A stretch of 64,000 nucleotides of DNA from Nemertoderma westbladi (Eukaryota; Animalia; Xenacoelomorpha), in NCBI GenBank assembly GCA_032718475.1, contig JAUCBJ010007525.1, positions 1-64,000 on the forward strand. Direction: 5' to 3'. Each line of letters begins with the position of its first letter. The first letter of the stretch is position 1. Shown here piece by piece: positions 10,341-42,368 of the stretch. Both the position numbers and the translations under genes were made by a program. A model generated the notes under the pieces. That model ran no database searches. It was not told the origin of the DNA and was given only the letters and a program-made list of their open reading frames with translations.

Positions 10341-10351
10341 ATAACGGATAT
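10341..10351 (+). promoter_or_regulatory. Putative self-priming primer-binding site ATAACGGATAT
   Basis: Abuts the LTR end, lacks the TGG of tRNA PBSs, and is the exact reverse complement of LTR 9594-9604 (ATATCCGTTAT). Confidence 0.55.
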
Positions 10352-10420
10352 CGCTTCTTTATTGCAGTAAGCAATAAAGTTGGGAGTACTGGTCAACCGG
10401 TAAACCTGAACGGTGTATCT

Positions 10421-10534
10421 GTAGGTCAGTAGGCCCAACTGCCAGAACCGGTACTGCTGTAGGCCCGTAGGTCCAACTGCCAGAACCGGTACTTCTGTAG
10501 GTCCGTAGGCCTAACTGTCCTAACCGGTACTTCC
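10421..10534 (+). repeat. 38-bp tandem repeat x3 in BEL leader
   Basis: GTAGG(T/C)C(A/C)GTAGG..AACTG..AACCGGTACT units at 10421, 10459, 10497. Confidence 0.8.
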
Positions 10535-10709
10535 CGTATAAGTACAGCAGTATTATTCGATTTGATTATATATGCCGGTAGGTCTTAATAATTAATCGGG
10601 GACGCCTGGTTTTTATTGGGATTTTACTTAGGCCTATTTCTGTCAGTTTTATTTATTTGTAGGCCAGTATTGAGCAGAAGGCGTGTAAGCCTGATCAGAT
10701 TGTGCAGAC

Positions 10710-11280
10710 AATTTGTAGGCTGGACTGTTGTCTGATTGCTGTTAGGTCTGAACGGATTGCAGTGTGTGTAGATCACCTGTCCGATAAAGAACGGTTAGGA
10801 AGTAGGGGCAGCGAATGCTGTAAGGTAAACCCCCAAATAAAGAATAAGTCGTACTACTGGGTTAGAACGCATACTACCTAATTATTTCGGAGTCTGCATG
10901 TCCTGTAGTTTATTTAGGCTTGAGAGTAGTCTGCCATCGTTGAGTCTGTACTTTGTTTGTGTAAGTCTGTACGGGTAGCGTATAATATTTATTTAGATAA
11001 TTTGTAGGCTGGATAGTTGTCTGGCTGTTATTAGGTCTGAACGGATTGCAGCGTGTGTAGATCACTTGTCCGATAAAGAACGGTTAGGAAGTAGGGGCAG
11101 CGAATGCTGTAAGGTAAACCCCCAAATAAAGAATAAGTCGTACTACTGGGTTAGAACGCATACTACCTAATTATTTCGGAGTCTGCATATACCGTAGTTT
11201 GTTTAGGCTTGATAGTAGTCTGTCAGTGTTCGGTCTGCATTTTGTTTGAGTAGTTTGTACGCGCAGCGTAATATTTATTA
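10710..11280 (+). repeat. ~289-bp tandem duplication in BEL leader
   Basis: AATTTGTAGGCTGGA...GTCCGATAAAGAACGGTTAGGAAGTAGGGGCAGCG... at 10710 and 10999. Confidence 0.9.
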
Positions 11281-12595
11281 TTCAGAGTTTATGCGATTAT
11301 TCGCAACATTCATTCCCCAAGTTTGTTCCTACAGTAATTGTGTTTGTTATACATACCGCTATAGTTAAATTAACCCCGGTACTACACGGGCTGCTTGGCG
11401 TAGGTAAAGACTGGTGATTTTGTGCATCGGTCACTCCAGCAGATGCCGTGGTTCTTTTAGCTGTTCAAGTATATTTAACTACAGATTACATGTTATACAA
11501 GTACTCGTACCTAATTTAGGGTTTAGTGTACAGTGCTTTCTGAAAGTAATTAGTAGGCATTATATTTGTGTTGTAAAGTGGTTGATAGGCACGTTCGATT
11601 AGCTCTATTAACTTCTAGGTAGGAACACTCCGTGATACATAACGTAGTACCTGTAGCGATACGGCTATAGGTCGTCAGGCGGTGGTATTTTCCTATCTGG
11701 ACAACGCAGTGTACTTACTACTACTTATTATTTCAAATACCGTAGTACCCTGTCCGTTGTAATAACCAGATTTCTAACCCTTTGTTAGGCTGGTTTGTAG
11801 ACTTCTTGTAAAATTACCCTAAAAATTTCGTATTTGTGTTTTTTGTAAATTTTTGTGTTTATTTAGAGATTGTAATCTCACCCGAATTGTACGTAATTTG
11901 TAGTATTAAGTAACTTAGGTAAATTAGAATTATTTGTTTTAGTGTCCTATAAGTAACACTTCACTGAAAGCGCACCGCTTTGTGTAGTGATTGCTCCTCA
12001 GAAATAATAACATTTATTTCAAACATTGACAAAACCCATTAAAACGGGTATATATATATTATAAATCAAATCTAACGATTTATAAATAGTAGGCCTACCA
12101 TACAACCATTAGGTCTCCATATCAGTTGGTCTACTGCTCAAATAGCGGTAATAAAGTAAGTAAAGTAACCAAGTAACCCTAAAAATTCAGAAATTCAATT
12201 ATTTAAAGTAATTGATATACCGGTATTTACGATAGGCCTATTATCTTTATTTCTATAAATTTAGGCTGAAACTATACCGGTACTTTATAATTAATTCTAG
12301 TCCAGAATTATAATTATATATACTACAAAACTGTAAGCTGTATACCGGTATTCCCGATAGGCCTATTATATATTTATATATATTTGCTAAAATTATACCG
12401 GTATTCTGTGATAAACCTAGTCTGTAATAATAGTTATATATACTATAAGCATACCGGTATTCTAATATATTATATATATCACGCTACACTGAGTAGCAGT
12501 ACCGGTAATTAATTACTAGGCTAGCAGTTAATACTGAGTTACTAGACTTGCTCAGACTGTAATACAGCAGTAGACATTCAACTGTATACATAAAC

Positions 12596-15500
12596 ATGTC
12601 TGATACTAAGCAGAACCTGTCAGACAGTTTATTAGATGTAACTATCTGCGACTCAGATAGAGATGTAGAACCATCTAGTCGTAAGTTCAGTTCACCTCCC
12701 ACTGTGAGGAAGGTCATCCCTCCAGTAGTAATAACAGAACCTAGGCTGGTCCAACATCGTAGGTCTATCATAGGCACTCGAGCTCAAGTCAAGCGGGACC
12801 AAGAAGCAGCGGAACAGCAACAACCCGCGAGCCAAGAATTTATTTCTCAGCGGCCCGACAGCTCCAGTAGCGAAGATACGGTAGAACTGACACCCGAGCG
12901 CGGAGCAAAGATGATGGATGCGGTTTATACGGATCCCCTTCTCATCCTTCCTGCAGCCGTACTCGCTAGGTTATTGATTGCGGTGGAAGAACACCAGATC
13001 GATTGGACGAGAAGTCAGCGATCAACTAGAGATAGCTATGCGGGATACACGAGGGAAGAACTGAAGTCTATTGTCGAGTCGCAATGGAACTTCCCCGGAC
13101 CCGGACTCCCGTTTGATTTATCAGAAGCTGCCTGGGAAGACATACACCGGATGGGAGTAGCCAAGGAAACCATCGATCCAGCTGTATGGAAGAGGTCCGC
13201 AGCCGGATACGCACAAGGATTCTTCAGCTCTATGGAGCGAGTAGAAAAACAACTGTTTAAACAACCTCAAGGACCTCAAGAGCAGGGACAACTGCTTTAT
13301 CAAGTTAGAGAAAGAATTCTGCGAATTAGGCTAATCTTATCAGCCTTTGAGGAGGCTTCTAAAAGAAGACAAGACACGTCGTTGCAAGTTGCCGTAAAGA
13401 CTTGGTTTCAACGGGTGAGTCGCCAGGTTCAAGGAGCAGCTCAGTGGAAAGCTCAATTGGAGGAGCGCTCAACCCATGGAGAATCAACGGACGCTATTTC
13501 TTCCCAAGTGGAAAGTGAAGCGACGGCAGAGAAACCGCATAAGAAGGATGCCATTGACATCTATCTGTCAGACTATCAGCGTTTTTTGGGAGATGAAGAG
13601 TTGAGGAGAAGGCTAGATGGACTTAGCCCTAATAGTGAAGGAGCCCAGCGTGTGTTGGATGCAATAGATGTAGATAGGTTAGCGGCGAATCAAGCTAAAT
13701 TCGATGAACAACTCCGCATCGCGAGAGAAAAGGAAGAACAAGTAAGGAAAAAACGTATAGAAGACAGAAAGATAGCAGCCGTGGCAGAGGCAGAAAGAAA
13801 AGCGACCTTAGCAGAAGCAGTGGCAGAGGCAAAAGCGGCAGCAGCAGAAGCCGAGGCAAAGGCAAAAGCGGCAGCAGCAGAAGCCGAGGCAAAGGCAAAA
13901 GCGGCAAAAGCAGAAGCCGAGGCAAAGGCAAAAGTGGCAGCGGCAGAGGCAAAAGCGGCAGCGGCAGAGGCAAAAGCGGCAGCGGCAGAGGCAAAAGCGG
14001 CAGCGGTAGCGGAAGCAGAACGGAGAGCGGCTGAAGAGATCACCCAACTGGAGTTGGAAAATCTTCAAGAGAATCAAGACTGCATAAATAAACAGTTAAC
14101 AGCTAGTAATATGCAGATGATGAATCGATCTACTCCCAAAAGACAGGGATATACATCAACTGAGGAAGGCGATACCACCGATACTGAAGGCAAAGGAAAT
14201 AGATCTCGTCTAAGCAGACGTAAAAGAACATTCCACCGTCAGAAATTGCCTGATTTGCCTCCAGCTGTTAGAAGGCAACTAAATAACACCAACTTAGGTA
14301 GTACAGAGCCCACAGACCAAATAATTAAAATAGAAAGACTCCCTACTATAGTAGATGAGCCTGAAATAATTAGGCCTGTTCTTGAAATCACCCCTTCGGT
14401 GATAGACACACCTGTGCTCCCTGAAACTACCTCTAAATTCCCTCTGCATAGCACTAAGCTACCTGTGCCCCGTAGAACTGCCCGGGAGACAGTTCAGGTC
14501 CTAGACCCCGAGCGAAATATTCCTGATTTGTCGCCCGTGGTCCCTTGTCCGCTCGCTACAACGTTGGCGACTCCCGCTTTGGCGGTCGAATGGGTGGACG
14601 AGAGACGGCGGGGGATGGATATCCTGCTCGGGCAGATGCAGGAGACTGTCCAGCAATTCAAGGGCACAGTAAGGGAAAGTAGACTAGAGTTGCAAGAAGT
14701 GCAGCAAAGTATCGCGCTAGAGCGCGATAAATTAGTAAATACTCAAAAGGGTATACTGCCACCCTCTGTAACAATGTGTCAACCTGTTAGGTCTGAAGTA
14801 TCTCATGCGCAAGGTGTGGAGCCTACACGCATATATACTGCTAGCGAAGTAGAAACTCCTATAGTGAACCCTATTAAGGGTAATTATAGACCTGTTGATA
14901 ATGACATTCCCTATAGAACTGATCATAATCCGAGAAATTTATATACCGATAACTCGATATTAAACAACACGATGGCCCAAGAAAGTTTTACGCGTCAAAT
15001 GGCTAGAACCGAAGCCCGGCAAGCAGTAAAGGTGGGAGAGATCGTCAAGTTCAATGGAGATGAGATGAAATGGTTACCTTTTAATGAATATTACAAAGAT
15101 AACATACAGAACTCTGTACTATCTAATGGAGAAAAACTTAGATACCTCATCGAGTGCTTGGAAGGATCTCCCAAGTTAATGGCGTTAAAGTTTATTGGAC
15201 ATCCAGACGGATTAAGACAAGTTTGGGACACACTAAACATCAGGTATGGTAATAGGAATAATATCGCTAAGTATTTATATGCAAAATTAGTAGCGCCCAG
15301 AAAGTTCATCAGCAGTGGGATAATAGAGTTTTCCGATGAGATTCAAGAGATCTGTAGACAATTAGATTGGTTAGGTAAGTCTCATGAATACCAAAGTTCT
15401 ATGGTCATTGGAGCTGTGGCTTCTACTTTACCGAAAGGTGGGGTAGGCACACGCTGGGATAAGAAAGTACTATATATGATGGAACAACAACGACGAGACC

Positions 15501-18500
15501 CTACCATGACTGATCTCATGTCATTCTTGGATGGAGAAGTGAAATTGCAACTCCTCAAGCAGTCCCGAGAGAAGACACCGGAAAACAAGGTAAGTGAAAA
15601 ACCCGTCTCTAGGAGAAAGGTAACACCAGTGTGTTATACAGACGACGGCGAAAGCCAGACTTCTCAAGGAGAAGATAGCGGGAAAGACACTGATAGATCT
15701 TATTATGTCAATAAGATGCCTAAAGATCAGGTAAGTAAATTCAAGTCTCTAGCAAATGACAGGAGGGAACAGGTAAGAAAAACTCCTCCCACGTCTCCCA
15801 AGAGAATTCAGGTGAGAAAGCCCGAAGAAAGGGCAAGTGTACACAATGTGACTCAGAATAAAGTAAGTAACATCAAACCGAAATGTGCGCTGTGTGACGG
15901 GACCCACCATTTGAATAGGTGTGATGAATTTCTAAAGAAATCATTAACGGAGAGACGCGAAGTCATGTGGGATAAGCGGTTATGTTATAATTGCCTCAGA
16001 CAAGGACACCAACGGCGAACCTGTTTCTCTGACATAAGGTGTGCAAAGTGTGGTGCGAAACATCATATCTTGTTGCACGCTGAATTCGATCGAAATAGTC
16101 AGAATCAGGTAAGTGATTCCGAGCTACATGTCCAATTCAGTGATGTGAACGACACTGATCAATCTGAGATGGAAGGATTCTATACAGACGAGTTCTCCAA
16201 TGAAAACGAATCCTGTTACATGATAAATACCGCAGTGTATCGAGCACTCACATATGAAAAGGATACAGACAACGACTTCACTCTAACTACTTCTGAGCGA
16301 CAACCATCTTGGAAAGAACCATCTTCCAATGTAGGGATCCGAGAGTTTCCTGTGGTGCAAGTAAGGGTTCACGGACCTAAGAGGAGTTATGTAGTGAACG
16401 CCCTCCTTGACTCCGGTAGTACAGGAACATTCATCGACAAAGAGCTAGCCGAAGATATATTTGCCGGACAACCCAAGTTCCAAACTAAGCTCAACATGTC
16501 CGGCATTATGCAAGTTTGGAAATCTACAATAATAGCTGATTATTATGTAGGCGCGTTGTCCACCCCACAAGACGAACTAGGAGAACATAGCATAAGGTCA
16601 GTGAAAATGGTAGCTATAAAGAACTTCGCTACTACTCAAGCAGACCTTTATAATTGGGACGAGGATGAGAGCATCCAACATCTTAACATACCTCGATTCC
16701 AGACTGATTATCCTGGAGTGCAAATACTCATCGGCCAAAACGCGCATGAGGCGCTGGAGACATTAGAGAAACGGCCTGCTCAACCGCAGCCCCTACAGAC
16801 CTATGCGGTAAGAACTAGAGTAGGTTGGTACTTTACTGGCCCTTCCCGTAGAACACTCAGAGAAAGACTACCGCCAGAGAGCGTATGCCAGTTGAGTGAA
16901 TGGGAAGATGATACCAGTGAGGGAGACAACTTAACTGAGGGAACTCCATACTCCTCAGATAATGACGACGTTCACCAGCTTTTTGATGAGGAGAATACCA
17001 TCGATCTCCTTAAGGAAAACGAGGCTTGGCAAAACCAAGTTAACTTATGTCAACTTCTCTATCCATCTGAACGAGAAGTTTATAACGACGAGTTAAATGA
17101 CGTCATTGAGCGTTGCAATGCCAAGACTCGAGATGAACATGCTGTACGATTCTTTACGCAAGAGGCGGTAGAGCCCAATTCCTACGATAAAGCCTTATCG
17201 GTGGAAGAGGAAAGGGCCAAGCAGATCCAAGAGACAACTACACGTTTCCTCAAAGATCAAGGCAGGTATGAAGTCGGTTTACCTTTTCGCAAGAGAGAAC
17301 CGAAGTTCATCAATAACAGACCTTTGGCGGAAAAAAGAATCGCGCAACTCCATCGACACCTTACGGCTAATTCTTCAGCTAAAGCAATGTATCAAACACA
17401 GCTGGAGAAATTTATTAGTAAGGGATACGCGGAGAGAGTACCGGAAGAAACACCTGTGACTGAAAGAACGTATTACTTAACTCACCATTACGTTCCTAAA
17501 CCCGGTAAGCCACATGAAGTGAGAGTAGTGTTTGATGGTTCCGCTCTTTACATGGGTCAATCCCTTAACTCTGAATTGTTACCCGGACCCAACTTGCTTC
17601 AATCTTTGTTGGGAATTCTTTTAAGGTTGAGACAATATTCGATTGCTTTCGCCTCCGATATAGAAGGCATGTTCTTACAAGTCAAGGTGCTAGATAGGGA
17701 TCGAGATAGTCTACGATTTCTGTGGTGGCCCGAAGGAGATCTCAACCAGAAACCGGTGGAGTACTGGATGACCATCCAGGCCTTCGGGATAATCTCAAGC
17801 CCTTCCAACGCCTGTTCGGTAGTGCGTACCACTGCAGAGGACAACCGAGAGGCATTCTCTAAGGAAGTGATCGACAACATCAAGAGAGACATATATATGG
17901 ACGACAATCTGAAGTCCCTTCCATCAGTTGAGGAAGCCATTGAGGTCGCTAAAGGAACGGTAGAGTGCTTAAAAAGAGGTGGATTTCGATTAACCAAATT
18001 CACCAGCAACTCCCGTGAGTTTCTGGAGTCGATCCCTGCGGAGGATCGAGGAGCGAAAGATCTCGATTTGATCAAAGATGATCTGCCAGAAACCAAGACA
18101 CTCGGCTTGAAATGGGACACAGAGCGAGATATCCTGTTTTTCCAGCTAAAACAGCGAGATAATCCAGTTCGAACCAAACGGATTTGCTTAAGTATACTGA
18201 GCACTTATTTCGATCCATTGGGATTTATTAGCCCAGTTATATTGATTGCTCGTAGTTTGGTACAACAAATGTGGCTTGAAAACCACTCATGGGACGATCC
18301 ACTTAAGGGAGAATTATTAAAGAAGTGGATGAAATGGGAAGATTCTCTGCCGGCTATCGAGGATTTTATAATTTCCCGTTCATATTTTGGTCATGTTCTC
18401 CCTACGTATTCCTATCAACTCCATGTGTTTGGAGACGCCAGCGATATGGGAATAGGTATAGTAGCCTATCTAAGGGTGGAAACTCCGGATGGAATCAAAG

Positions 18501-20779
18501 TCACCTTGGTTACTTCTAAGGCATTAATCAACAACAAGTTGAAAGTTCCTCGAGCGGAGTTAAAAGCGGCTCTATACGCTACAGCCATCGGCCGGAATGT
18601 AACCGAACAGATTGACTATCCATTAGAGAAAACTGTCTATTGGACCGACGCTTTACTCGTGTTAGAGTATATAACCAATGAAGTCTGTCAGTTCAGCGTC
18701 TTCGTTACCAACAGGGTAGCCATCATACTTAGTCGCACGACGATGGACCAATGGAGACATTGCCCCGGAACGATTAATCCAGCAGACATCGCGTCCCGAG
18801 GAGCGACTCCAAAGGAATTGGTAAATACTCCCGAATGGTTAGGAGGACCCGACTTTCTCTACAGAGAAGAAGAAGAATGGCCTCCTCATCTCACCACAGC
18901 AGAGATCAGACAGGCCAAGGGAGCGGAGAAAGTTAAACCCAAAACTCGAGCGAGTAAATCGAAGTTGTTTAAACCTGCGGTTGATCTATCTGTATTAGTT
19001 ACTTCCGGAGAGGATGCTTTGGATCAGAAACCCACCGCCACGACTAGAGAAGTCTTGGAAATCCGTGACAAGGATTGGAAATCTGGAATACCAGATATTT
19101 CGCAAGGACTCTCGCCTCTCTTGCAGAGAGCGATACGTCACTACAGTTCCTGGAATCGGCTCTGTAAAGCTGTCACCTATCTGAAACGATGTTTTCATCA
19201 TCGTTACTCCGGGACAAAGACCCATAGTGATGATGCTCCATCAACATCTGCACGAGTCCATGTTGTTAAAGATCTTCCCCAATACAAGGTATCCGACAGG
19301 TTTCTAAAGGAGAAGATCAGTTACCAGGAGCATGATGAAACCAACAAACAGATGCTGAGACTCCTACAATGCTATGAGGATTCCGATAAGTATTTCCTGT
19401 TATTAAGAAATCCACAGATGCGCTTAAGGGATCGCTTCTCTAGTACCATGATAGATGGGTTAATATGTGTTGGAGGCAGGCTAACCAATGCCCCATTATC
19501 CTTTGACACTAAGTTTCCCATCCTCATTAGAAATCTTGACATACAAATCAAGATAATTGTAGATGTTCATAGCAAACTGTATCATGCTGGTAGAGAACGA
19601 GTTCTGAGCGAAATTCGAACTCGCTACTATTTTTATAAACCCCGTAGGGCTCTGAACCAAGTTCTTAGGAACTGCATACCCTGTAGGAAAGCATTCAGTA
19701 GGCCTTTAACACAGCGAGAGGCAGAATTACCTAGGGAAAGAGTAAGCTTCTATGAACCACCCTTTACTAATACCGGTGTGGATTTATTTGGCCCTATTGA
19801 AGTATATCGTGCCCGGACTATAGTCAAGAGATGGTGTGTCATCTTCGTTTGTATGACTTGTAGAGCTATCCATCTCGATATGGTAAACGATCTATCCACC
19901 AACAGCTTCGTGTTGAGTTTACGACGACAGATCGCTCGCTTCGGAACCAGTAACACGATGAGATCGGATAAGGGAACGAACTTCATTGGCGCCAACAACG
20001 AAATTCAAGCTTACGTAAAGGACTGGAACAAAAGACAGGTGGACGATCAGCTAAGGATAACAGCGTCTAGCTGGACCTTCAACGCCGCCGACGCCCCTTG
20101 GTGGGGAGGAAGTTGGGAGAGATTGATTAGGAGCGTGAAGACTGCGTTCCACTTTATTGTGCCTTGTCGCGCTTATCTCACCGACGAACTATTGCGGACG
20201 TTAATGGAGGAAATCGCCGCCTATCTCAACGAAAGACCGCTTATGCCAGTCTCTTCAAATCCGGATTCCCTGGAAGCGCTAACACCCGCGCACTTTCTAC
20301 TGAAGAAACCCGTAGCCATGCTCCCACGATCGGAGATCACAGACGGAGACGAGTACTGCCGTCGAACCTGGCAACTTATGCAGTTGCTATCCCGTCGTTT
20401 CGCTGACCATTTCGAGAAACATTACCTGCCCACTCTACAACTTCGAACTAAGTGGTTTGCGCAGCAAGAAAACGTCAGCGCTGGAGACATGGTGCTTATT
20501 GTGGACCCCGATCTCCCACGTAAGCGATGGCAAACAGGACGTATCATCGAGACTTATATCTCGAGCGATGGTTTGGTGCGATCAGTAGAGCTCGTCGTCA
20601 TGCGGCGGAACTTTAAGAAACCAGGGATAGTCTTTGAGACTCAACAGCTCAATCGCCCAGTGGGACGTTTATGTTTACTGGAAAGAGACAGAGAGCTCTC
20701 CGGAAACTATGGAAGGCAAGAAACTCTTCCCACGACCACTTCCCTAATCCAACCGACATCTAGGGACTCCCCAACTTAA
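12596..20779 (+). CDS. gag-pol: BEL/Pao Gag-Pol polyprotein, 2727 aa
   Basis: BEL triple Cys/His cluster (CALCDGTHHLNRC, CYNCLRQGHQRRTC, CAKCGAKHHILLH), protease LLDSGS, RT IYMDD, Pao RNase H FGDAS, integrase GVDLFGP..RSDKGTNF..WGGSWERL; uninterrupted. Confidence 0.97.
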   Translation: MSDTKQNLSDSLLDVTICDSDRDVEPSSRKFSSPPTVRKVIPPVVITEPRLVQHRRSIIGTRAQVKRDQEAAEQQQPASQEFISQRPDSSSSEDTVELTPERGAKMMDAVYTDPLLILPAAVLARLLIAVEEHQIDWTRSQRSTRDSYAGYTREELKSIVESQWNFPGPGLPFDLSEAAWEDIHRMGVAKETIDPAVWKRSAAGYAQGFFSSMERVEKQLFKQPQGPQEQGQLLYQVRERILRIRLILSAFEEASKRRQDTSLQVAVKTWFQRVSRQVQGAAQWKAQLEERSTHGESTDAISSQVESEATAEKPHKKDAIDIYLSDYQRFLGDEELRRRLDGLSPNSEGAQRVLDAIDVDRLAANQAKFDEQLRIAREKEEQVRKKRIEDRKIAAVAEAERKATLAEAVAEAKAAAAEAEAKAKAAAAEAEAKAKAAKAEAEAKAKVAAAEAKAAAAEAKAAAAEAKAAAVAEAERRAAEEITQLELENLQENQDCINKQLTASNMQMMNRSTPKRQGYTSTEEGDTTDTEGKGNRSRLSRRKRTFHRQKLPDLPPAVRRQLNNTNLGSTEPTDQIIKIERLPTIVDEPEIIRPVLEITPSVIDTPVLPETTSKFPLHSTKLPVPRRTARETVQVLDPERNIPDLSPVVPCPLATTLATPALAVEWVDERRRGMDILLGQMQETVQQFKGTVRESRLELQEVQQSIALERDKLVNTQKGILPPSVTMCQPVRSEVSHAQGVEPTRIYTASEVETPIVNPIKGNYRPVDNDIPYRTDHNPRNLYTDNSILNNTMAQESFTRQMARTEARQAVKVGEIVKFNGDEMKWLPFNEYYKDNIQNSVLSNGEKLRYLIECLEGSPKLMALKFIGHPDGLRQVWDTLNIRYGNRNNIAKYLYAKLVAPRKFISSGIIEFSDEIQEICRQLDWLGKSHEYQSSMVIGAVASTLPKGGVGTRWDKKVLYMMEQQRRDPTMTDLMSFLDGEVKLQLLKQSREKTPENKVSEKPVSRRKVTPVCYTDDGESQTSQGEDSGKDTDRSYYVNKMPKDQVSKFKSLANDRREQVRKTPPTSPKRIQVRKPEERASVHNVTQNKVSNIKPKCALCDGTHHLNRCDEFLKKSLTERREVMWDKRLCYNCLRQGHQRRTCFSDIRCAKCGAKHHILLHAEFDRNSQNQVSDSELHVQFSDVNDTDQSEMEGFYTDEFSNENESCYMINTAVYRALTYEKDTDNDFTLTTSERQPSWKEPSSNVGIREFPVVQVRVHGPKRSYVVNALLDSGSTGTFIDKELAEDIFAGQPKFQTKLNMSGIMQVWKSTIIADYYVGALSTPQDELGEHSIRSVKMVAIKNFATTQADLYNWDEDESIQHLNIPRFQTDYPGVQILIGQNAHEALETLEKRPAQPQPLQTYAVRTRVGWYFTGPSRRTLRERLPPESVCQLSEWEDDTSEGDNLTEGTPYSSDNDDVHQLFDEENTIDLLKENEAWQNQVNLCQLLYPSEREVYNDELNDVIERCNAKTRDEHAVRFFTQEAVEPNSYDKALSVEEERAKQIQETTTRFLKDQGRYEVGLPFRKREPKFINNRPLAEKRIAQLHRHLTANSSAKAMYQTQLEKFISKGYAERVPEETPVTERTYYLTHHYVPKPGKPHEVRVVFDGSALYMGQSLNSELLPGPNLLQSLLGILLRLRQYSIAFASDIEGMFLQVKVLDRDRDSLRFLWWPEGDLNQKPVEYWMTIQAFGIISSPSNACSVVRTTAEDNREAFSKEVIDNIKRDIYMDDNLKSLPSVEEAIEVAKGTVECLKRGGFRLTKFTSNSREFLESIPAEDRGAKDLDLIKDDLPETKTLGLKWDTERDILFFQLKQRDNPVRTKRICLSILSTYFDPLGFISPVILIARSLVQQMWLENHSWDDPLKGELLKKWMKWEDSLPAIEDFIISRSYFGHVLPTYSYQLHVFGDASDMGIGIVAYLRVETPDGIKVTLVTSKALINNKLKVPRAELKAALYATAIGRNVTEQIDYPLEKTVYWTDALLVLEYITNEVCQFSVFVTNRVAIILSRTTMDQWRHCPGTINPADIASRGATPKELVNTPEWLGGPDFLYREEEEWPPHLTTAEIRQAKGAEKVKPKTRASKSKLFKPAVDLSVLVTSGEDALDQKPTATTREVLEIRDKDWKSGIPDISQGLSPLLQRAIRHYSSWNRLCKAVTYLKRCFHHRYSGTKTHSDDAPSTSARVHVVKDLPQYKVSDRFLKEKISYQEHDETNKQMLRLLQCYEDSDKYFLLLRNPQMRLRDRFSSTMIDGLICVGGRLTNAPLSFDTKFPILIRNLDIQIKIIVDVHSKLYHAGRERVLSEIRTRYYFYKPRRALNQVLRNCIPCRKAFSRPLTQREAELPRERVSFYEPPFTNTGVDLFGPIEVYRARTIVKRWCVIFVCMTCRAIHLDMVNDLSTNSFVLSLRRQIARFGTSNTMRSDKGTNFIGANNEIQAYVKDWNKRQVDDQLRITASSWTFNAADAPWWGGSWERLIRSVKTAFHFIVPCRAYLTDELLRTLMEEIAAYLNERPLMPVSSNPDSLEALTPAHFLLKKPVAMLPRSEITDGDEYCRRTWQLMQLLSRRFADHFEKHYLPTLQLRTKWFAQQENVSAGDMVLIVDPDLPRKRWQTGRIIETYISSDGLVRSVELVVMRRNFKKPGIVFETQQLNRPVGRLCLLERDRELSGNYGRQETLPTTTSLIQPTSRDSPT

Positions 20780-21106
20780 TATCGTTCGGAGTGGGCGTGT
20801 GACTCTATTATTTTATATTATTTTATTATTTTTATATTTATGTATGTATTACTATGTAATTTTATTATAATCGTTTTATTTAATTTAGTAGAATATTATT
20901 TAGCGATTATTTTGTAGAATAGTGCAATATATTCGTGTTTATTACGTACGTAATTACTTATATTATATTTAGTGAGACGGCGAAGAAATAATTATTTTTC
21001 TCTTTCCTTACTGTCCGTATTATATTATAAATACGTAACTACAGTAAGATGAAATGTCTGTACTTATTAAAGTACAATAAAGCCACTACTATATTTAAGT
21101 ATTATT

Positions 21107-22060
21107 GGTAGGCAGAGTATTAGGAATTCAAAGTTCAGATCCTCGTGTCTCGGCTAAACCAAGCTCTGGGTAGACCTTGGAAACGACTTGCCTCTTCACA
21201 CTGACATTGCTTCGTGCGATATTGCTCTCATACCGTATATTAAATAATACATATAGTAGCGTGATGTCCCTTTAACAGTAGCGTATAACGCAAAATAAAT
21301 CTGTTAAACCCTTTGACCATCTGTAATTCTAGTCGATTAAGATATCGCGGCACCCACCGATATACTTGAAAGACAAATTCTAGAATCAGTGGTTAACGTC
21401 CCCAGACAAGTTCTGGAATAAATCGGTGCCCATCTCAAATATTAATTATTTAATATTTGCAAATCTAATAAATCAGAATCTGTAAAATTCAGATCCTTCA
21501 ACAATTCTAGTCAATTAAGATATCGTAGCATTTACCGATATTCTTAAAAAAGACAATTGTCATAGAATTAAGGATCTTGTGTCCCTAGACATGTTCTAGA
21601 ATCAAAATATGTCCATTTAATTATCAAATAATAAAATTTCAGGGAATAAATTTAAATTCATGCCTTTTAATGAATTTAATAAATTGCCATTTTTACGCAA
21701 TTTATAACATTCCCAAAATTCCATTAATTAATAGATCAAGGGAGCGGAGATTTATCTTATTATGCATATGAGTGTGCGAAAGTCTCCCAAACATAGTCAA
21801 TAGCCGATAAAATTCATAAAGTCATGTATAAAACAGAACATTGACTATTAAAGAATACTATTAAATAACATCCCAAATCTGTATGCATTGGAATTACCCT
21901 AATTCTACCGCTAGCTTTGCATAATGTCACCATAGCAACAACCACGCTAGAATTAGAATGGAGTTAAAAGAACAATAGAAAGCTTGTCCCATTGAATAGC
22001 ATAGGGAATAAATAGCGCACTACTAGTATCCAAGGATACATAATAATACAGTGACATTCT
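21107..22060 (+). other. Array of predicted RNA hairpins between pol and ORF2 (candidate cis-acting RNA)
   Basis: Two paralogous multi-stem units (21313-21432, 21491-21617) with compensatory changes; further stems TTTAACAG/CTGTTAAA, ATAGTCAAT/ATTGACTAT, CTAATTCTA/TAGAATTAG. Confidence 0.55.
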
Positions 22061-22430
22061 GGAAGGCATTGACTAACGGACAAATGGCCCGAATGTGCGT
22101 AGTTATGACCAGTTGTGTGGTATTTGTGAGTTTATAGGTGAATGTTACTGCTAAAGTGTGTTTACAGTAGCTAGTCGCAATCGTAAAAGTAACCTAACTC
22201 TCCAAGGAAAACCTGAAGTACATCTAAGCCTTTGGGACGGACAGTTGAGTGACTTGTGCCGGTTATCGTTGTCGTTGTACGGCTACGTCGTTGGCGAAAG
22301 TATAGCGACAGCGGTACATCGGCGCTGAGAATCTCATACTGTCCGGGGGCAAGGGAGAAATAGGCAGCGACGCCCGCTCGCCTAACAATATATAAACTCA
22401 TTATAATATTGGTGAACTTGTATAGCAGAT

Positions 22431-25400
22431 GTGACTGAATTAATAGAAGATGATCTTGGTATCAGGGAGAGATATATTCTACCTTTACAAGCGTTTGTCG
22501 ATAGCTTGATACGCGGCGACGCTGATCCAACTACTACGGAGGACGATGGTCGTTATATTGAACCGCCAATGTCCCAGGAGCAACTTACGCGTGAATTGGA
22601 CTATAGAAAATTCACTGCTCGCTATACGCATCGTAATGGTATGTATATGGACTTCTTAACTACCGGCCATCCTATTGATTTACACGACACCGACGATGTC
22701 GATACCGAAAGGGAAATGGTTTTATTTAAATATCATACCCAGCGGAGTCGAAACGATAAATCGAGAATAGAACACGAGAACTCTATTCGAAATAAGCTCG
22801 AAAGAGAAGACGTTGAAGAACCTGATAAACATAGCGGCTTCAACGAATATCTAGAATTTCTAAGAGAAACCTATCTCAATGTTGCCAGTCAACAAAACCT
22901 CGAAACTCGATATCCCCAAGGTATACATCCAGATCCGATAATGGAACTCAAACGGCTCTATTTTACGATGATGTATCTTACCGCCGATCGACCACTCCCT
23001 GTCGTTCCAGATAGCTTCGAACAGATGGAGGAATATTGTAAAACTGGAGAGCGATCACCCGCGTTTCCCCTTCAAGACGTGCGTCTTTGGTATTACTGTG
23101 ACGAATGCCCTAGACCTAACCAGCAAATCGAAAGGCATAAGCATCCGCGGAGACGTTGCGCTAAACACAGTTTTACACGATATACTTATGGGAGTTTCGA
23201 GCGTAACCTTTTCGACGTATCACCTACGGTCGCGCGCCTTAAGCGATCATTGAATAAACCCATGATCAGAGTTCCGGAATACTCGGTCAGACCTCCCCAT
23301 TCCCAAGTGATACCTCAAACTCTAGATCCTAATAGTATTACGGATCCTCCCGAACTGTACTCACTGTTCAAAGATCTAGTGTTACCTGAACAGTTGATTG
23401 GTGGCACTCTGGTAGTGGGTTCGTTGGATATTCGCCAACCTTACCTTGCTGGACTAGGACGCGGTCATCTAATATCACCGTTTAACCCCTACAACCGTCC
23501 TGGCCTTCCCCTGATCCAACCTGTTACAGAAGTCGAAGAGAGCGTGATACGAAATGCATTAGACGCTATTCGGCAGAAAATCGGAAAAGGAACTTACGAT
23601 TGCTTGGAGAAACGTAAATTGCAACAACAAGTCCAAGCGGTGAAAGAACTAGCTTTACCCCAGTTCGATAGAGAAATACAAAATCTAGAGGAGGACATCG
23701 AACGTGGACGAACCTACTCTTTACAGGAATTCCTGGACGAGCGCTTGCAACAACAAGCGGAGGAAAATCAGCTCGAGGAGAGACATATAGAGCTGACTGA
23801 GAGGGAAGAAGCAGCTTTAGCCCAACCAGAAGCTCAAATTCTCGTGACAGATCTCTATTCCAAAACGATTCTCCACCCCTCGATGGTTCCCCATTTTAAA
23901 GACAAGCTCTTTGCTACGGTACAGCCTCAACCGGTTAACACCGATCTCAGATCTCAAGAGCTCGTTGCTGACGCTCCCATGCTACAACGTCCACCCGTCG
24001 AGGCTGCTCGTGTCGATGGCGTACTTGTTGAGCCTCCGGACAATAGAGCGGATCTTGTCCGTCGCATGGTGCACGATGTTAACATACGTGCTAGACCTTT
24101 GCCGGACTCATTTTATGGAATTAAGGATCATCCTTATTACGTCAATTTAAAGCAATATTACATGGTAAAACCAGAAGATCCTACGCATAGTCTGAAGTTT
24201 CTACCATTGATCAATCCTCTCGACCTCGTCGAACTCGAACAACTACAAAAACATCTAGATCAGCTAGTTAAACTAAACTCATTTCGAAAACCATATAATA
24301 TTTCCCGAATAGAGAAAGAAATATCACCCCCGTACAATCTTGATGGATTCATTAAAACTCGATTGGTACACTGGAATCTTGACGTGTTATTCGAGGAAGA
24401 AAGAATAAAACGATATGGAGATGTGGAAACCTATACTACACAATGCTTAAAGTATAGAGATTTACCCAATGCTAGCGAATGCGCTACTTTGTGGCATCCA
24501 GTGGGAATGACTCTCGAAAACGCCACTAAAGAATGGAACGAGACTCTTAACGTTATCGAGATGTATGGCGTTGTTACTTATGACAACGAAGGTAGCGTTC
24601 CGGTGGGAGAACTAGGAACTACGCGAATGATACATATACGAGGACTCGCTGGTTCTACCCACGTATTCACTCGAGCGTGTTCCGACGTGATCGATTATTC
24701 TTTTGAAACCCTTACGGAGACACAAAAGAAACTTCGACATGGACAATTCGAGCTCGCGCAGCGTTACGTCACTGATACCGAGCGCAAACCGGCCATGGGT
24801 ATCGACGGATCAATGTTACCCCAACCCGTGCTCGAAATGTTGTTTAACGAAAGAATCCTAAAAATCGGTTCAGCTGTTTATGGAGATCTCCAAAACGACT
24901 TCCGGAATATGGAAAACATTCCATACCCTTTCGTTGATACTCAGCTGATTGCTCCTTGGGCCGAAGGCCGAGGTTTCTTTCGCACTATACACCCCTATAC
25001 ACCCAGCGACATTACTAAGGTACAACGGACATCCATCGGACATCTTGCCTTTCAAGAATATGGATGGAACTTCAAAGTTGGAAATCCTATCAATTACCAG
25101 CAGGTATATGGAGATCATTACTACCGTTTATATTTTGAAGGACCATTAACTGCGCCTGGTGCAGTATATAGCTTTATGAGTGTTCCACTTCGCCCTTCCT
25201 TAGCTATATACACGATCTTTGAAAACGCAGCACTTGCCGGTTGGTTAGCCGATGTGTGCAGTCGTACCATACGCGCTCACCCGTTAATACTTGGAACTAA
25301 ACTCGCCAAGTTAGACGAACACAATAAGTTCATACGTTTCGAATGTTTCCGGCGCTTTCTGACTCCGTTCCGTAACGTCGATAGTCAGTTCAAAGACCGC

Positions 25401-26684
25401 GCGCTGACCAAGCTCAGTCTTAGAGACTCAGCTGCGGAGAAACTGAGTAGCGCTGGATTTGCCGTCTTTCAAGACGTTTGTATACAGAACCTACATTCAT
25501 CCGTTATACAAAGACCCCGAATATCTACAGGTTATTCTGTCATGGAAATACAGACAGTGGGTCCACTTACGGAAACCGACGCACCCACTTCGTCTATGCA
25601 GCTGGAGGATGAACCAGTATGCTTGGAATCAGAAGCGATTCAACCTACGGCTTCCCGGAGCAGTGACAATGATTATGTCATAGAGTGGTATCAAGGTCCA
25701 CAGCGTCTCACAGCGTACGATTATCGACACGCCAACTACGTTTCCCGAAAACGTTGTCGATTATGCGCATCGAGAGACCACTTCACTCCTCTAGACTCGA
25801 GCGTACCTTGTTCCTATTTCCTCGAACAACCGATGATGGAAATATATTGTGCTTATTGCCGGCTTAATAACTCTCATATATTTGCCGTCTGCCCACAATT
25901 TATGACTCAATGTCACTACTGCCAACTTAAAGGACATGAAAGTTACAATTGTCCCTTTAATCGCGATTTAGAGAGCGTAGACGAGATGATCACCCTGCGA
26001 TACATCCGAGCTTGGGAAGCGAACGCCGATTTACATTGCGAATCCCGACATCGCTATTACCCTGGACGAGCTTACGAGGGAGTTTACGCGTTCCATCCTT
26101 ATCTATTCGCGTCGATTGAACAGAAAACACGCGTACCAAGTTACGAGTTAATGAAGCGTGTTGGTGAGTGTATTTCCACCAAGTTTGTCAGGAAATACCT
26201 TAGAAACGTTAACCCTAATGATATAACCACATATCACCTGATCAATTTTATCCGTCAGGACCCTGAGTATGGCGACATCTTTGTGAACTCGCATCCTGAA
26301 CTACAGGAAATATCTCGGCGACCATATGAATATCGAACCCGAGAACGCGAGCTGGAGAGAACCATTAAACCGAGAAAGTTCCTCACCACTCACGGTCCAC
26401 CCACCGCTAGTGTCCAGACGACCCGTCAAGGACCCGTAGGAGCTGCTGTCCTGAGACGCGCTCTAAAGGCCGTTAGACCTCACTCCACTGAGGTTGATAT
26501 TAATCAACCAGGTACTTCGACCGGCGGGTATACCGATCGTAACCCTGCACCTTCTGATGCAATTATATTGCACCCTTCACCTAGGAGCTACAGCCCTCCT
26601 CGTAAAGTGGCTCGCCCCAAAGAGAAAATGACTCTTGCTAGCTTTAAAAAACTGCGTAAACGCCGTCCGCGCAAGAAAGACTAA
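22431..26684 (+). CDS. BEL accessory ORF2: DEDD (WRN/EXD-like) 3'-5' exonuclease-like domain, three CCHC zinc knuckles, basic C-terminus
   Basis: 1417 open codons (GTG start called; first ATG at 22569 in CCGCCAATG); VVTYDNEG, LPQPVLEMLFNERILKIGSAVYGD, PFVDTQ, SIGHLA..YG; CCHC array 25755-25955; KKLRKRRPRKKD tail; no obvious signal peptide or TM anchor. Confidence 0.85.
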   Translation: MTELIEDDLGIRERYILPLQAFVDSLIRGDADPTTTEDDGRYIEPPMSQEQLTRELDYRKFTARYTHRNGMYMDFLTTGHPIDLHDTDDVDTEREMVLFKYHTQRSRNDKSRIEHENSIRNKLEREDVEEPDKHSGFNEYLEFLRETYLNVASQQNLETRYPQGIHPDPIMELKRLYFTMMYLTADRPLPVVPDSFEQMEEYCKTGERSPAFPLQDVRLWYYCDECPRPNQQIERHKHPRRRCAKHSFTRYTYGSFERNLFDVSPTVARLKRSLNKPMIRVPEYSVRPPHSQVIPQTLDPNSITDPPELYSLFKDLVLPEQLIGGTLVVGSLDIRQPYLAGLGRGHLISPFNPYNRPGLPLIQPVTEVEESVIRNALDAIRQKIGKGTYDCLEKRKLQQQVQAVKELALPQFDREIQNLEEDIERGRTYSLQEFLDERLQQQAEENQLEERHIELTEREEAALAQPEAQILVTDLYSKTILHPSMVPHFKDKLFATVQPQPVNTDLRSQELVADAPMLQRPPVEAARVDGVLVEPPDNRADLVRRMVHDVNIRARPLPDSFYGIKDHPYYVNLKQYYMVKPEDPTHSLKFLPLINPLDLVELEQLQKHLDQLVKLNSFRKPYNISRIEKEISPPYNLDGFIKTRLVHWNLDVLFEEERIKRYGDVETYTTQCLKYRDLPNASECATLWHPVGMTLENATKEWNETLNVIEMYGVVTYDNEGSVPVGELGTTRMIHIRGLAGSTHVFTRACSDVIDYSFETLTETQKKLRHGQFELAQRYVTDTERKPAMGIDGSMLPQPVLEMLFNERILKIGSAVYGDLQNDFRNMENIPYPFVDTQLIAPWAEGRGFFRTIHPYTPSDITKVQRTSIGHLAFQEYGWNFKVGNPINYQQVYGDHYYRLYFEGPLTAPGAVYSFMSVPLRPSLAIYTIFENAALAGWLADVCSRTIRAHPLILGTKLAKLDEHNKFIRFECFRRFLTPFRNVDSQFKDRALTKLSLRDSAAEKLSSAGFAVFQDVCIQNLHSSVIQRPRISTGYSVMEIQTVGPLTETDAPTSSMQLEDEPVCLESEAIQPTASRSSDNDYVIEWYQGPQRLTAYDYRHANYVSRKRCRLCASRDHFTPLDSSVPCSYFLEQPMMEIYCAYCRLNNSHIFAVCPQFMTQCHYCQLKGHESYNCPFNRDLESVDEMITLRYIRAWEANADLHCESRHRYYPGRAYEGVYAFHPYLFASIEQKTRVPSYELMKRVGECISTKFVRKYLRNVNPNDITTYHLINFIRQDPEYGDIFVNSHPELQEISRRPYEYRTRERELERTIKPRKFLTTHGPPTASVQTTRQGPVGAAVLRRALKAVRPHSTEVDINQPGTSTGGYTDRNPAPSDAIILHPSPRSYSPPRKVARPKEKMTLASFKKLRKRRPRKKD

Positions 26685-26762
26685 CTGTTTAGAGTATTTA
26701 TGTATATTAGAAATTGTGATTTTGTATATTTTATAGACTTAAATCCCATTTTCTGGGAGCGG

Positions 26763-29501
26763 TGTAAAAGCTTTTGTGGGATAACTGATTCGTTTGCCTT
26801 GCTAACCAGTTCCCCCCCAGTCGCTAGAATACTCTAAAAAGGGATCTATAACTCGAATAGCACAAGCTACCGGCTGATTGGCTGATTCGCTGTGCGAAGG
26901 GATCTGGGCTACGTTTGATTGTCCAACTAGCTTGGGAAAGTATCTCCCAATAGAATTTGAGTTGATTTTGATTTCGACCTATCACAGATCTACTGAACTG
27001 AATTTTCCTATCTTTATGCTCTTTCTCTGTGTTGGGTGGAAGCCTTTGTAAATAAGGTTATTCTTATCAGTTTTCAGTGTTGTTGGTCTTTCTTTCCTGA
27101 GCCAGGAGAGAACGGCTTGTAAATATTTTGTGCTTTTCTGTTTTAGTCTAACACTAGTTAGTAGGCTTTAATTATAAAGGGCATATATCCGTTATCACAA
27201 CAACAAACATATCAAAACAAACCAAACAATCCACACTGAATTACTGTGCATACCTTTATATTGTTATACTGCTATTTACTGTCAGTTCTTCATAATATGG
27301 TTGATGAATTATTATATTTGGAATAACGATAAATAACCCCGAAACCCAATATTCTTGATATACCGAAGGTAAGAGAGAAAGGTTACATATAACGATTGTG
27401 ACTTATGTTAAAGTGGTTTGAAGTGAATCTAATGTTATTTGATAGACCCTACATGAGTCAGTCCGTGTTCCTTTTATATATAACTAAAATCAGTGAAGAT
27501 CGGCAGATCAGTGTGCAGTATTGTGCAGCATTGTGTATGGGTGAACCTGATAACGAAGCATTTCCTAAAGAATGCGCCATATATGTGAATTATAACTAAG
27601 CCACCCCTGGTTTTAAAAACTTTTAGTGTCATGAAAAATACCGTAAAATCTGTGACTGCGAGCTCTTATATAATGATCTGCATAGCAAAAAAAAATATTT
27701 TTTAAAATATTTTATCGAGCTCCTTTTTTTTAGCACCTAAAAATGTGTTCTAGAACATTTCTTCGGTGGTGTGCGGAGTTGTCGAATTTAGGTAACTTGA
27801 ATACTGATTCCTTATATTAGCCATTATATGCCAAATTCGCTAAGGATTTCAAATCTGCAAACAGTTTCATCATATCTTGTTTAGTTTTCGAGATATCGTG
27901 AAAAATGTGATGCGCACCCAAAAAGTGCGTGCGGCACCAAATTTTCAATTTTCAGTAAATTGAAATATTCACTAAAAAATGAAAATTATCGATTTCTATA
28001 GGTTTTTTGCGATGCTGAATGCAATGGTAATATTTTCCAGAAGGCTGGGTGAATTGTCATACTACTTTTCATTGGGTGCTGAAATTTGGAAAATGAAAAT
28101 CAAATTTTCAACCATTGGAAATTTTCAATATAAAGCTCTGATTTACGATTTATTAAGGTTCTGTGTATTGCTGAGTGTAACAGTAATGTTTTCTCAATAA
28201 GAGGTTTACTGTGTATACAATTTTTACTAAACTGTCTAAAAAATGTGATGAGATATATTTAATTTCTAATTCATACGTTTGTATTACTGTCATCCTACTT
28301 ATATATTCTAAAATGTTTCAAAACACAATACTTCGATTAATTATCTTTATGTATTTTTATTAAACTTTTATGAATATTTATATAACTTTTACAAAGTTTT
28401 GAATAACTTTTAGAACTTTTCTATGACTTTTTTCGGATTTTTCTATAACTTTTAGAAAATTTTATACATGTTTTGGAAATTATTATATAACTTTTGGTAA
28501 TTTTTATACAGCTTTTGCTAACGAATATGATGCTTTGGGAAACATTATATACATAGTAAACCAGTTATCCAGAAAATAATACTGTAGCATTCAAAACCAT
28601 ACAAAACCTAAAAAAAATAGCTAATCATAGGTTTAAACGGGATATTACAAAACTTATAAAATTTGTCATTTTTGATTTTAAAATTTCAGCACCCAATGAA
28701 AAGTAGCACAACAATTCACTCAGACTTTTGGAAAATATTACCATTGCATTCAGCATGGCAGAAAACCTATAGAAATCGATAATTTTCATTTTTTAGTGAA
28801 TATTTCAATTTACTGAAAATTGAAAATTTGGCGGCGCACGCACTTTTTGGGTGCGCATCACATTTTTCACGATATCTCGAAAACTAAACAAGATATGATG
28901 AAACTGTTTTCAGATTTGAAATCCTGAGCGAATTTCGCATATAATGGCTAATATAAGGAATCAGTTATCAGGTTACCTAAATTCGACAACTCCGCACACA
29001 ACCAAAAAAATGTTCTAGAACACATTTTTAGGTGCTAAAAAAAAGGAGCTTGATAAAATATTTTAAAAAATATTTTTTTTTGCTATGCAGACCATTATAT
29101 AAGAGCTGGCAGTCACAGATTTTACGGTATTTTTTATGACACTAAAAGTTTTTAAAACCAGGGGTGTAAGCCATATCGTTGTGAGTAGTTTAAGTCATAA
29201 CTCTGTTTGTATAAATAGAGCGCCACGTCCTAAAGGAACTGTTAATATTCCCCGAAGGTGAATAATATTGTCAGAGATTATATAATACTGTCAGTCGAAT
29301 AATACATTAGGCTTACATAGCAATAAGATTAAGCCGTCGAACCCAATCTCCCGGGTATATCCAGCGGGTGAATGATCGCGCACAGATTGGTTTCGACTAG
29401 TGTAGTGAATTAAATACTTGTCATAGACTAAAAGTGATTTATTATCTAGAAGACATCATAATTTGGCGGGTTAAACTGCCAAAGGTCTAAAAGCGCGAAC
29501 A
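26763..29501 (+). repeat. 3' LTR of BEL element, interrupted by a DNA transposon
   Basis: Matches the 5' LTR in two pieces, 26763-27601 and 29167-29501. Confidence 0.95.
27602..29166. mobile_element. Non-autonomous foldback DNA transposon (CAC termini, ~490-bp TIRs, 5-bp TSD; possibly Transib-like)
   Basis: CACCCCTGGTTTTAAAAAC...GTTTTTAAAACCAGGGGTG; TSD TAAGC at 27597-27601 and 29167-29171; absent from the 5' LTR. Confidence 0.9.
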
Positions 29502-41565: not shown

Positions 41566-42047
41566 CCCTATCCATACCGGGGGGGGGGGACTTTTGGAGA
41601 CGCACTTTATTTGATTGCTTGGTTCAAAGCCAAACCACATTTATTGCAAGTGAAATTCCGTTACTTTTCCTAAAATTTATTATTCTTTATCTTAAAACAA
41701 AAATTTATTTTCATATTATTATTTATGACCATGAAAATGACTCGTAAACTGACCTGTCTCTGAAACTGTCATATTATTGCTGAACTATTATAGGCGGGAA
41801 ATTTAAAATTCAATCAATTTAATATCAATTTAAAATCAATTTAAACATAATTATAGTATATAAATATTATATTTGAGCATTAGTGTGTGGCATATTTGGA
41901 TAGAGGAATAAATTTTGTATCTAAAACTTTTTACTTTAAAGTAATATCATCACACCACACAAAGTTATATGCTTCCAAACTTTACGTCCCCAAAAGTCCC
42001 CCCCCCCCGGTAGTTTGAGCGTCTAAAATACCCCGGTATGGATAGGG
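41566..42047. mobile_element. piggyBac-type MITE inside the Gypsy 3' LTR
   Basis: TTAA TSD (41562-41565, 42048-42051); 17-bp TIR CCCTATCCATACCGGGG; absent from the other LTR. Confidence 0.92.
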
Positions 42048-42368
42048 TTAAGCAAATGTATAATTAATCAGATATTGTATAATGTTCTGATACACAGTCA
42101 GACAGTGTCGTGTAAACCAAGTACGGGTACGGTACTCATAACTGGTACTTAATAATCCCACCACCGTGACAAGATATATACTGTATATCCAAAGTCTCAG
42201 TCTACACCAACTCCCCCGTTTTCTGAGATTTTTAGGACGTTAAAAATCTATGCGCTAGTAAAGCGAACCACTGGTTTATGTAAACGCGTACTTCTGCGTA
42301 AACAAGATTTCAAACAACTTTCAGTTTCGTGGTTGTCCGTTGTACAGGGGTGTATGTCCTGAAGGTCA

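Follow-up and report, generated by a model that had tools for sequence, protein, structure and literature searches.

What would an animal retrotransposon gain from a large exonuclease-like gene carried where an envelope gene (env) would be expected? The question is raised by a stretch of Nemertoderma westbladi DNA (contig JAUCBJ010007525.1, positions 1 to 64,000 of the forward strand, hereafter the window), which contains a BEL/Pao-type element bounded by long terminal repeats (LTRs). An earlier note, made from the letters of the window, had drawn attention to an accessory open reading frame (ORF) in this element. Our analysis suggests that the frame is a selected gene for a predicted exonuclease followed by zinc knuckles. 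That this BEL/Pao accessory gene serves to trim host silencing RNAs is the answer we put forward, as a possibility that stays short of probable. Its parts are listed below in window coordinates; residues of the accessory protein are counted from 22431.

22389 to 22395, forward strand: TATA-like word following a CpG-rich stretch (22201-22400), which may be an internal promoter
22416 to 26684, forward strand: accessory ORF where env would be expected, 1422 codons from stop to stop, 1371 amino acids (aa) from the ATG at 22569
22569 to 24500, forward strand: N-terminal part, about 640 residues from the ATG, of no recognised family
24510 to 25265, forward strand: domain resembling 3'-5' exonucleases of RNase D/WRN/EXD (PF01612) type, residues ~695-945, with D718, E720, D819, Y927, E931 and three insertions
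25755 to 25952, forward strand: three tandem CCHC-type zinc knuckles, with matching knuckles in a homologue called here P0123
26646 to 26678, forward strand: basic C-terminal tail, possibly a nuclear or nucleolar signal

The frame lies between gag-pol (12563-20779) and the 3' LTR, ending 78 nucleotides (nt) before the latter, and is uninterrupted as had been claimed; the chance probability of 1422 open codons is about 4e-36. Among 7 frames compared, its codon usage is nearest to that of the element's own gag-pol (r 0.49). The first in-frame ATG is at 22569, position 22431 is a GTG, and three out-of-frame ATGs stand upstream of 22569. A splice acceptor had been suggested near 22425. Sites do exist at 22425 and 22428, but their pyrimidine tract is weak and they fall below the threshold of an acceptor scan. 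A search of the first 400 gag codons turned up no phase-1 donor, and no splice joint was seen among the 15 of 152 joints displayed for run X4, which is only guessed to be RNA and covers non-coding parts too. The absence of a signal peptide or membrane anchor was confirmed, no hydrophobic segment being present (the best 19-residue Kyte-Doolittle mean is 1.36). No envelope-type family was matched by the protein in Pfam or in PHROGs/NCBIfam-type scans, and a viral fusion glycoprotein is thus not its best match. With neither a hydrophobic segment nor a fusogen-type family match, the envelope-gene reading of the frame was rejected.

We then asked what the middle of the protein is. The motifs from which an exonuclease had been proposed were all found in place: ExoI VVTYDNEG at 24570-24593 (D718, E720), ExoII KIGSAVYGD at 24861-24887 (D819), FVDTQ at 24930, SIGHLAF at 25032 and YTIFE with Y927 and E931. 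A scan of 18,950 NCBIfam models returned only 2 matches, both to RNase D (E 0.003 and 0.018), and 25 of 30 ESM Atlas matches belonged to the PF01612 set (score 0.93, 170 shared features, the family being on 50% of members). When residues 792-884 were searched by tblastn against 72,556 plasmid records, 3 weak matches were obtained, of which 2 fell in RNase D domains, with E values of 0.4 and 1. These three unbiased scans weakly agree on a kinship with RNase D/PF01612. Word-indexed search, metagenome and viral contigs, phages and PDB sequences yielded no relative of the accessory protein, in which no HRDC domain was detected either.

Bacterial PF01612 domains were collected for profiles, 10 stand-alone ones being WRN-like (best PDB matches WRN, MUT-7 and EXD2). 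With a seven-block profile of these 10 exonucleases, the accessory protein scored 72.8 against 38.9 +/- 5.5, and 0 of 500 shuffles reached its score; gag-pol gave 45.9 and 29 held-out family domains -12.8 to 96.9. D718 and E720, which form the ExoI D-x-E, fall on invariant columns of the family alignment, and D819, the ExoII Asp after the K-x-G strand, belongs to the strongest block, of rank 1 in the protein. Alignment of the domain by hhalign gave E values of 0.005 with 10 PF01612 sequences, 1.6e-4 with 28 and 7.4e-6 with P0123 added. Altogether, the middle domain very probably has a PF01612-type fold followed by CCHC-type knuckles, and the NCBIfam, ESM Atlas and shuffle results bear out the DEDD-type exonuclease domain that had been claimed.

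Structural modelling was less discriminating. A single-sequence model of the domain had a low pLDDT (33.7), and one guided by 29 bacterial PF01612 domains reached 58, with 75-88 around ExoI and ExoII. In the guided model, a long helix from residue 920 bears Y927 and E931, though the input alignment had another register. Foldseek matched it to RNase D, WRN, EXD2, Nibbler, Egalitarian and trypanosome RNase D, 1 match being at E <=0.001, and the model also matches giant-virus exonucleases. Since it was built on a PF01612 alignment, these matches are not independent evidence of the fold, and the resemblance to a DnaQ-like fold is that of a model which depends on the alignment. In VIA-align, EXD1 comes first (Z 11.2, rmsd 4.1, 180 aligned), with diDNase, Pol I, a plant RICE-type protein and trypanosome RNase D within 1 Z. 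On this model, structural scores single out no PF01612 subfamily, and a special tie to EXD1, Egalitarian and MUT-7 over RNase D or WRN is not borne out by them.

Could such a domain be an active enzyme? Taken by itself, the accessory sequence leaves the ExoIII register ambiguous between Y913/S917 and Y927/E931, ungapped scoring being split, and only P0123 favours the latter. This unnamed protein of 648 aa, from a single 9.4-kb contig, was the sole match in a phmmer search of 1.84 billion representative proteins (E 4.2e-8); a contig search found no genomic locus for it. It aligns to accessory residues 796-942 with 30% identity over 150 aa, shares two insertions, and retains D62/E64/D130/Y229/E233-N plus three CCHC knuckles in the same nuclease-knuckle order. 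Its ExoIII segment, W-x2-P-L-x3-Q-x2-Y-x3-E-N, aligns to Y927/E931/N932, the Tyr ranking first of 450 positions in a core search window, and second, and outside the top four, in two wider ones. P0123 has an Arg-rich linker, weak Pfam matches (PF01612, E 0.2; zf-CCHC, E 0.046) and knuckles resembling retroviral nucleocapsid and Air2 fingers, and is without a counterpart of the N-terminal 690 residues of the accessory protein.

As aligned, both proteins carry a D-E-D-Y-E set. Neither has the ExoIII Y-x3-D: both read Y-x3-E (Y927-x3-E931 in the accessory protein), and the other register gives Ser. The placing of YTIFE at ExoIII YxxxD thus holds for the Tyr, which P0123 favours, but not for the last residue, and the register is ambiguous without the homologue. 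By its predicted ligands the domain is a DEDE variant, at best a DEDDy-like enzyme and not a canonical DEDDy member. The earlier note had also allowed for a pseudonuclease; the kinship to nucleases is supported, but the "pseudo" part is less likely because P0123 keeps the same five active-site positions, and we consider a catalytically active exonuclease rather likely.

The three tandem CCHC knuckles claimed downstream are present and start about 165 residues past the exonuclease domain, but only the third has the canonical CX2CX4HX4C spacing, the first two being CX2CX4HX9C and CX2CX5HX4C. For the knuckles, Pfam gives at best zf-CCHC_3 (E 0.005), below its cut-off. The N-terminal Cys/His cluster (C223-H246, at 23097-23168) and the basic tail that had been described were both found, and 13 of the 23 cysteines of the protein lie within the knuckles and this cluster. 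The N-terminal part also contains a Glu/Gln-rich, helical-looking stretch (~23540-23840); no usable match to its 690 residues was obtained in Pfam, PHROGs, NCBIfam, PADLOC or the ESM Atlas.

The whole element, accessory frame included, is spanned by contigs of four public runs, which were compared with the window copy. In the nuclease region (24560-25240), the comparison tool listed 40 of the 118 places differing in at least 35% of a run's depth. Among these 40, 33 are third-position and 32 synonymous, with 0 stops and no indel listed. The expected synonymous share is 23-32%, which gives a binomial P <=5e-10 and a rough dN/dS of 0.08-0.12. Over the whole element, among 40 of 3802 rows, synonymous differences amount to 9 of 13 in the accessory ORF and 15 of 26 in gag-pol, 1 non-coding row being excluded. 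The neutral evolution of sister copies that had been named as a possible refutation was not seen. Judged by these substitutions, the accessory ORF is a genuine gene held by purifying selection in related copies.

On this basis, one would wonder what the protein does for the element. We propose that a predicted metal-dependent 3'-5' exonuclease with three knuckles could trim or destroy host silencing RNAs aimed at the element. A dedicated mRNA, internal or spliced, would give rise to the protein, which the basic tail could direct to the nucleus. If trypanosome RNase D is a guide, single-stranded RNA would be gripped by the knuckles and its 3' end passed to the active site, where a two-metal site with Glu in place of the last Asp might support catalysis; small antisense RNA, its precursors or its cleavage products would be the substrate. 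Nibbler, a member of the same clan, has a role in piRNA trimming. Host silencing RNA was ranked first as substrate because the gene is separate from Gag-Pol and missing from described BEL/Pao elements, and because nucleases of related type turn up again and again in unrelated mobile elements and help arenaviruses to evade immunity. No way for the product of this separate frame to enter the Gag-Pol particle is evident. Unrelated elements are described as having acquired such nucleases repeatedly (PMC5408684, PMC3706591), the arenavirus exonuclease as a suppressor of innate immune signalling (PMC7968707) and EXD1 as an inactive piRNA factor (PMC5408684). Weighed layer by layer, a counter-silencing substrate comes out as a tentative choice, leaning to doubtful. 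The interpretation in the earlier note is partly supported: its roles of piRNA-pathway antagonist, Rev-like export factor and cDNA- or primer-processing enzyme are candidates, as are nuclear location and RNA binding.

Several observations weigh against a nuclease directed at host RNAs. The nuclease domain has no Pfam or PDB sequence match, HMMER with purpose-built profiles is non-significant (E 0.7 and 2.2 within the window), and the block score comes mostly from the ExoII segment, the best path being correct at ExoI and ExoII with the last three blocks misplaced. MAFFT sets Y913/S917 under the family Tyr/Asp (with a count of matched invariant columns that 1 of 200 shuffles equalled), a register in which a metal ligand would be lost. 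In the other register the fourth acid is Glu and not the canonical Asp; trypanosome RNase D with its fourth Asp changed to Ala is described as keeping only trace activity (PMC7797062), and the putative catalytic residues retained by Egalitarian as dispensable (PMC13186709). The 40 differences were chosen by the comparison tool and measured from the window copy, and are not independent events. Contigs of runs X1 and X3 join across the nuclease-knuckle part (e.g. 23788 to 26550), so that some copies of the family must be without it; absence of the ORF from sister copies, anticipated as a possible objection, is contradicted by the four runs that cover the frame but holds in part for these X1/X3 copies. 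Finally, Rodriguez et al. are described as favouring the processing of the element's own RNA ends (PMC5408684), and the counter-silencing step is argued by analogy only.

A rival target is the element's own RNA, and the build and priming of the element are set out in the following features.

9149 to 10340, forward strand: BEL/Pao-type 5' LTR, 1192 nt, TG...CA
9594 to 9604, forward strand: candidate self-primer in the LTR, exact 11-nt complement of 10341-10351
10341 to 10351, forward strand: primer-binding position, lacking the TGG that marks a tRNA site
12563 to 20779, forward strand: gag and pol in one BEL/Pao-type frame, 2738 codons, first ATG at 12596
26755 to 26762, forward strand: short purine-rich tract directly before the 3' LTR
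26763 to 29501, forward strand: 3' LTR, TG...CA, split by a 1565-nt inverted-repeat DNA element
27602 to 29166: inverted-repeat DNA element inside the 3' LTR, 1565 nt, TAAGC on either side

The two LTRs show 2 mismatches in 1164 aligned nt, a 28-nt tandem duplication of the 5' LTR being absent from the 3' LTR, and the element is flanked by AATGC and AATGT, a target-site duplication matching at 4 of 5 nt; near-identical LTRs and these flanks point to a young insertion. Once the 1565-nt insertion is removed, the element measures 18,783 nt (18.8 kb). Its gag-pol frame encodes Gag with three Cys-His motifs, then protease, reverse transcriptase (RT), RNase H and integrase; the Pfam matches above cut-off are PF05380, PF03564, PF18701 and PF17921 (Pao peptidase A17, DUF1759, DUF5641 and an integrase zinc domain). 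A protein search with the RT region returned 971 proteins at E <=1e-30. Among the best 120 of these, all 120 carry PF05380 and 119 share 39-44% identity with the query, none exceeding 44%, which points to a BEL/Pao-type lineage without close recorded relatives. Named relatives among the matches listed come from echinoderms, cnidarians, molluscs, a tunicate, a nemertean, fish and a spider. With RT and RNase H placed by best protein matches, the element is classed as BEL/Pao-type by its Pol and is not a typical semotivirus.

Other traits of the element were observed in passing. The leader (10341-12595) is very long (2.25 kb), AT-rich and contains internal repeats, and the spacer from pol to the accessory ORF (20780-22415) is also AT-rich (1.6 kb). 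Gag has an unusually long N-terminal extension (12596-15050), with about 800 residues ahead of DUF1759 and an Ala/Glu/Lys repeat at 13751-14041. Strong donor-like sites lie within the LTR at 9777 and 10096. The insert at 27602-29166 is non-coding, with inverted ends of about 630 nt (CAC...GTG) and a 5-nt duplication; its ends recall those of Transib elements. In the stretch 23781-26550, which DNA runs X1 and X3 join across, related loose ends occur in X5, and a derivative or sister family without nuclease and knuckles may exist.

How is reverse transcription of this element primed? The first 6 nt after the 5' LTR contain no TGG and thus no tRNA-type primer site. The perfect 11-nt complement between 9594-9604 and 10341-10351 is equalled in 6 of 5000 shuffles of the LTR and at 2 of 1630 internal positions, and folding of the leader predicts pairing probabilities of 0.84-1.0 at 10 of the 11 pairs. 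In Tf1-type self-priming, which this match resembles, the primer site is complementary to the 5' end of the element's own transcript (PMC4600332). From these signatures, the element may well be self-priming. The lack of a tRNA site and the 11-nt self-complement make primer trimming a rival role for the nuclease, which could cut back the 3' end of the self-primer to the 11-nt duplex or tidy the ends of genomic RNA or cDNA. RNase D-type enzymes do trim 3' ends, the knuckles resemble nucleocapsid fingers, and 3'-end processing is the role described as proposed for rotifer ORF3s (Rodriguez et al., PMC5408684). However, the Tf1 self-primer is described as generated by RNase H (in the title of a reference of PMC4600332), an enzyme encoded here too, the accessory protein stands outside Gag-Pol, and the TATA word nearest to 9594, at 9582, is only 12 nt upstream. 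We judge this role unlikely.

Equally unlikely, in our opinion, is that the nuclease fold works as a non-catalytic RNA-binding adaptor of the Egalitarian or EXD1 kind, which would export, transport or shield the full-length 17-kb RNA. The non-canonical fourth acid, the large insertions, the 640 extra N-terminal residues, the basic tail and the very long AT-rich leader and spacer would suit an adaptor, as would the first place of EXD1 in VIA-align; in Egalitarian, localisation signals are described as bound elsewhere than at the putative active site (PMC13186709). Nevertheless, D, E, D, Y and E are all retained in P0123 at only 30% identity, and the top VIA-align rows tie for a model built on a PF01612 alignment. 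Finally, a captured host gene carried as a passenger without benefit, or a divergent envelope gene, is very improbable and already largely refuted: LTR elements do capture host sequences, published extra BEL/Pao ORFs are described as env-like (PMC8742986, PMC13524379) and the middle of the frame is lost in some copies, but the strong synonymous excess, a codon usage closest to gag-pol, the lack of a close host-type relative among 1.84 billion proteins, the missing hydrophobic segment and the concentration of cysteines in the knuckles and N-terminal cluster all speak against it.

The trimming of host silencing RNAs keeps the first rank, with primer or end processing and the adaptor role as close rivals. 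A more encompassing hypothesis would be that of a deep, giant, self-priming BEL/Pao lineage whose DEDE RNA exonuclease and knuckle clamp belong to a previously undescribed mobile module common to P0123 and either destroy piRNA-pathway RNAs or mature the self-primer. We regard it, as a whole, as rather doubtful; if true, an animal LTR retrotransposon would encode an enzymatic counter-defence or a priming factor. A nuclease cargo may bear on the wider question of how animal retrotransposons withstand silencing by small RNAs.

Elsewhere in the window, a gypsy-type element occupies 42046-46965 on the reverse strand; its gag (429 aa, with a zinc knuckle) and pol (935 aa) frames are open, and its terminal repeats, of about 100 nt, are 96% alike. 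An AT-rich cluster of frames at 48400-64000 and 38863-40420 includes an rve integrase (50426-51547) and unassigned frames of 805 and 511 aa; the stretch 49048-50620 is repeated inverted at 38863-40420. This cluster resembles Polinton remnants.

It remains to compare the element and its gene with known systems. With the Belpaoviridae it shares LTRs, one Gag-Pol, the order protease, RT, RNase H, integrase and the Pao-specific Pfam domains. The ICTV profile of that family gives genomes of 4-10 kb and an 18-nt primer site complementary to tRNA-Arg or tRNA-Gly (PMC8742986), whereas the present element, of 18.8 kb, is about twice the published size range, is without such a site, and has a nuclease instead of an env-like extra gene. 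Only env-like extra genes are mentioned in the BEL/Pao texts available (PMC8742986, PMC3118150, PMC13524379). Nor did a BEL/Pao exonuclease gene come up in literature searches; Repbase, subscription journals and supplements lie outside their scope and may hold an annotated case. Among the 120 BEL polyproteins of the RT matches listed, none matches the accessory ORF and none lists PF01612.

The nearest parallel in mobile elements comes from bdelloid rotifers: Juno, Vesta and Terminons bear DEDDy ORF3s whose motif is DEED, as reported in 2017 by Rodriguez, Kenefick and Arkhipova (PMC5408684) and repeated in reviews (PMC6338049, PMC6431247, PMC5718144). As described, these are likewise RNase D-like genes downstream of pol in the env position, without membrane segment, with retained acidic residues and a putative function. 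We set these ORF3s apart from the accessory protein by this published description: their hosts are gypsy-like and Penelope-like, the motif is DEED there and DEDE here (third acid Asp, fourth Glu), tandem CCHC knuckles are not among the features described there (PMC5408684), and the protein here has about 1370 aa. In that description, intragenomic variation is examined only for env-like and GDSL ORFs, while the present nuclease appears to be under purifying selection. The case thus extends nuclease cargo to a further retroelement group and contributes evidence that selection on it is purifying. A DEDDy exonuclease domain is also carried by the Dada DNA transposons of Laccaria and Ectocarpus, where it is described as lying inside the transposase, with four canonical DEDD residues (PMC3706591). 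WRN exonuclease, EXD1, EXD2, Egalitarian and MUT-7/Nibbler, of the PF01612 clan, share the motif order and the ExoII segment and are all among the fold matches; they differ by an identity of 9-17% and by the three insertions of the accessory protein.

As for novelty, which the earlier note, knowing of no such architecture in BEL elements, had overstated, DEDDy cargo in rotifer elements (PMC5408684) and an exonuclease with CCHC fingers (PMC7797062) are already described, but the BEL/Pao context, the size and the DEDE variant, as read from the residues, were not found in the print consulted. The exonuclease with fingers is the RNase D of Trypanosoma brucei (TbRND; PDB 7C42), described as a DEDD domain with four CCHC fingers behind it, which bind RNA and make the enzyme more active, a combination its authors call "very unusual" (PMC7797062). 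Both proteins thus have a DEDD-type exonuclease followed by tandem CCHC fingers, and no HRDC is reported in that description of TbRND. The latter is described as a host mitochondrial enzyme of 390 aa with a 28-residue linker and the canonical Asp230 (PMC7797062), whereas the accessory protein is a mobile-element product with three knuckles, placed about 165 residues past its domain, and a Glu at the fourth position. The two show no match in a PDB sequence search, and their common layout is probably convergent. Nuclease and knuckles nevertheless form a compact unit with five predicted active-site residues, in a layout already solved in the trypanosome enzyme.

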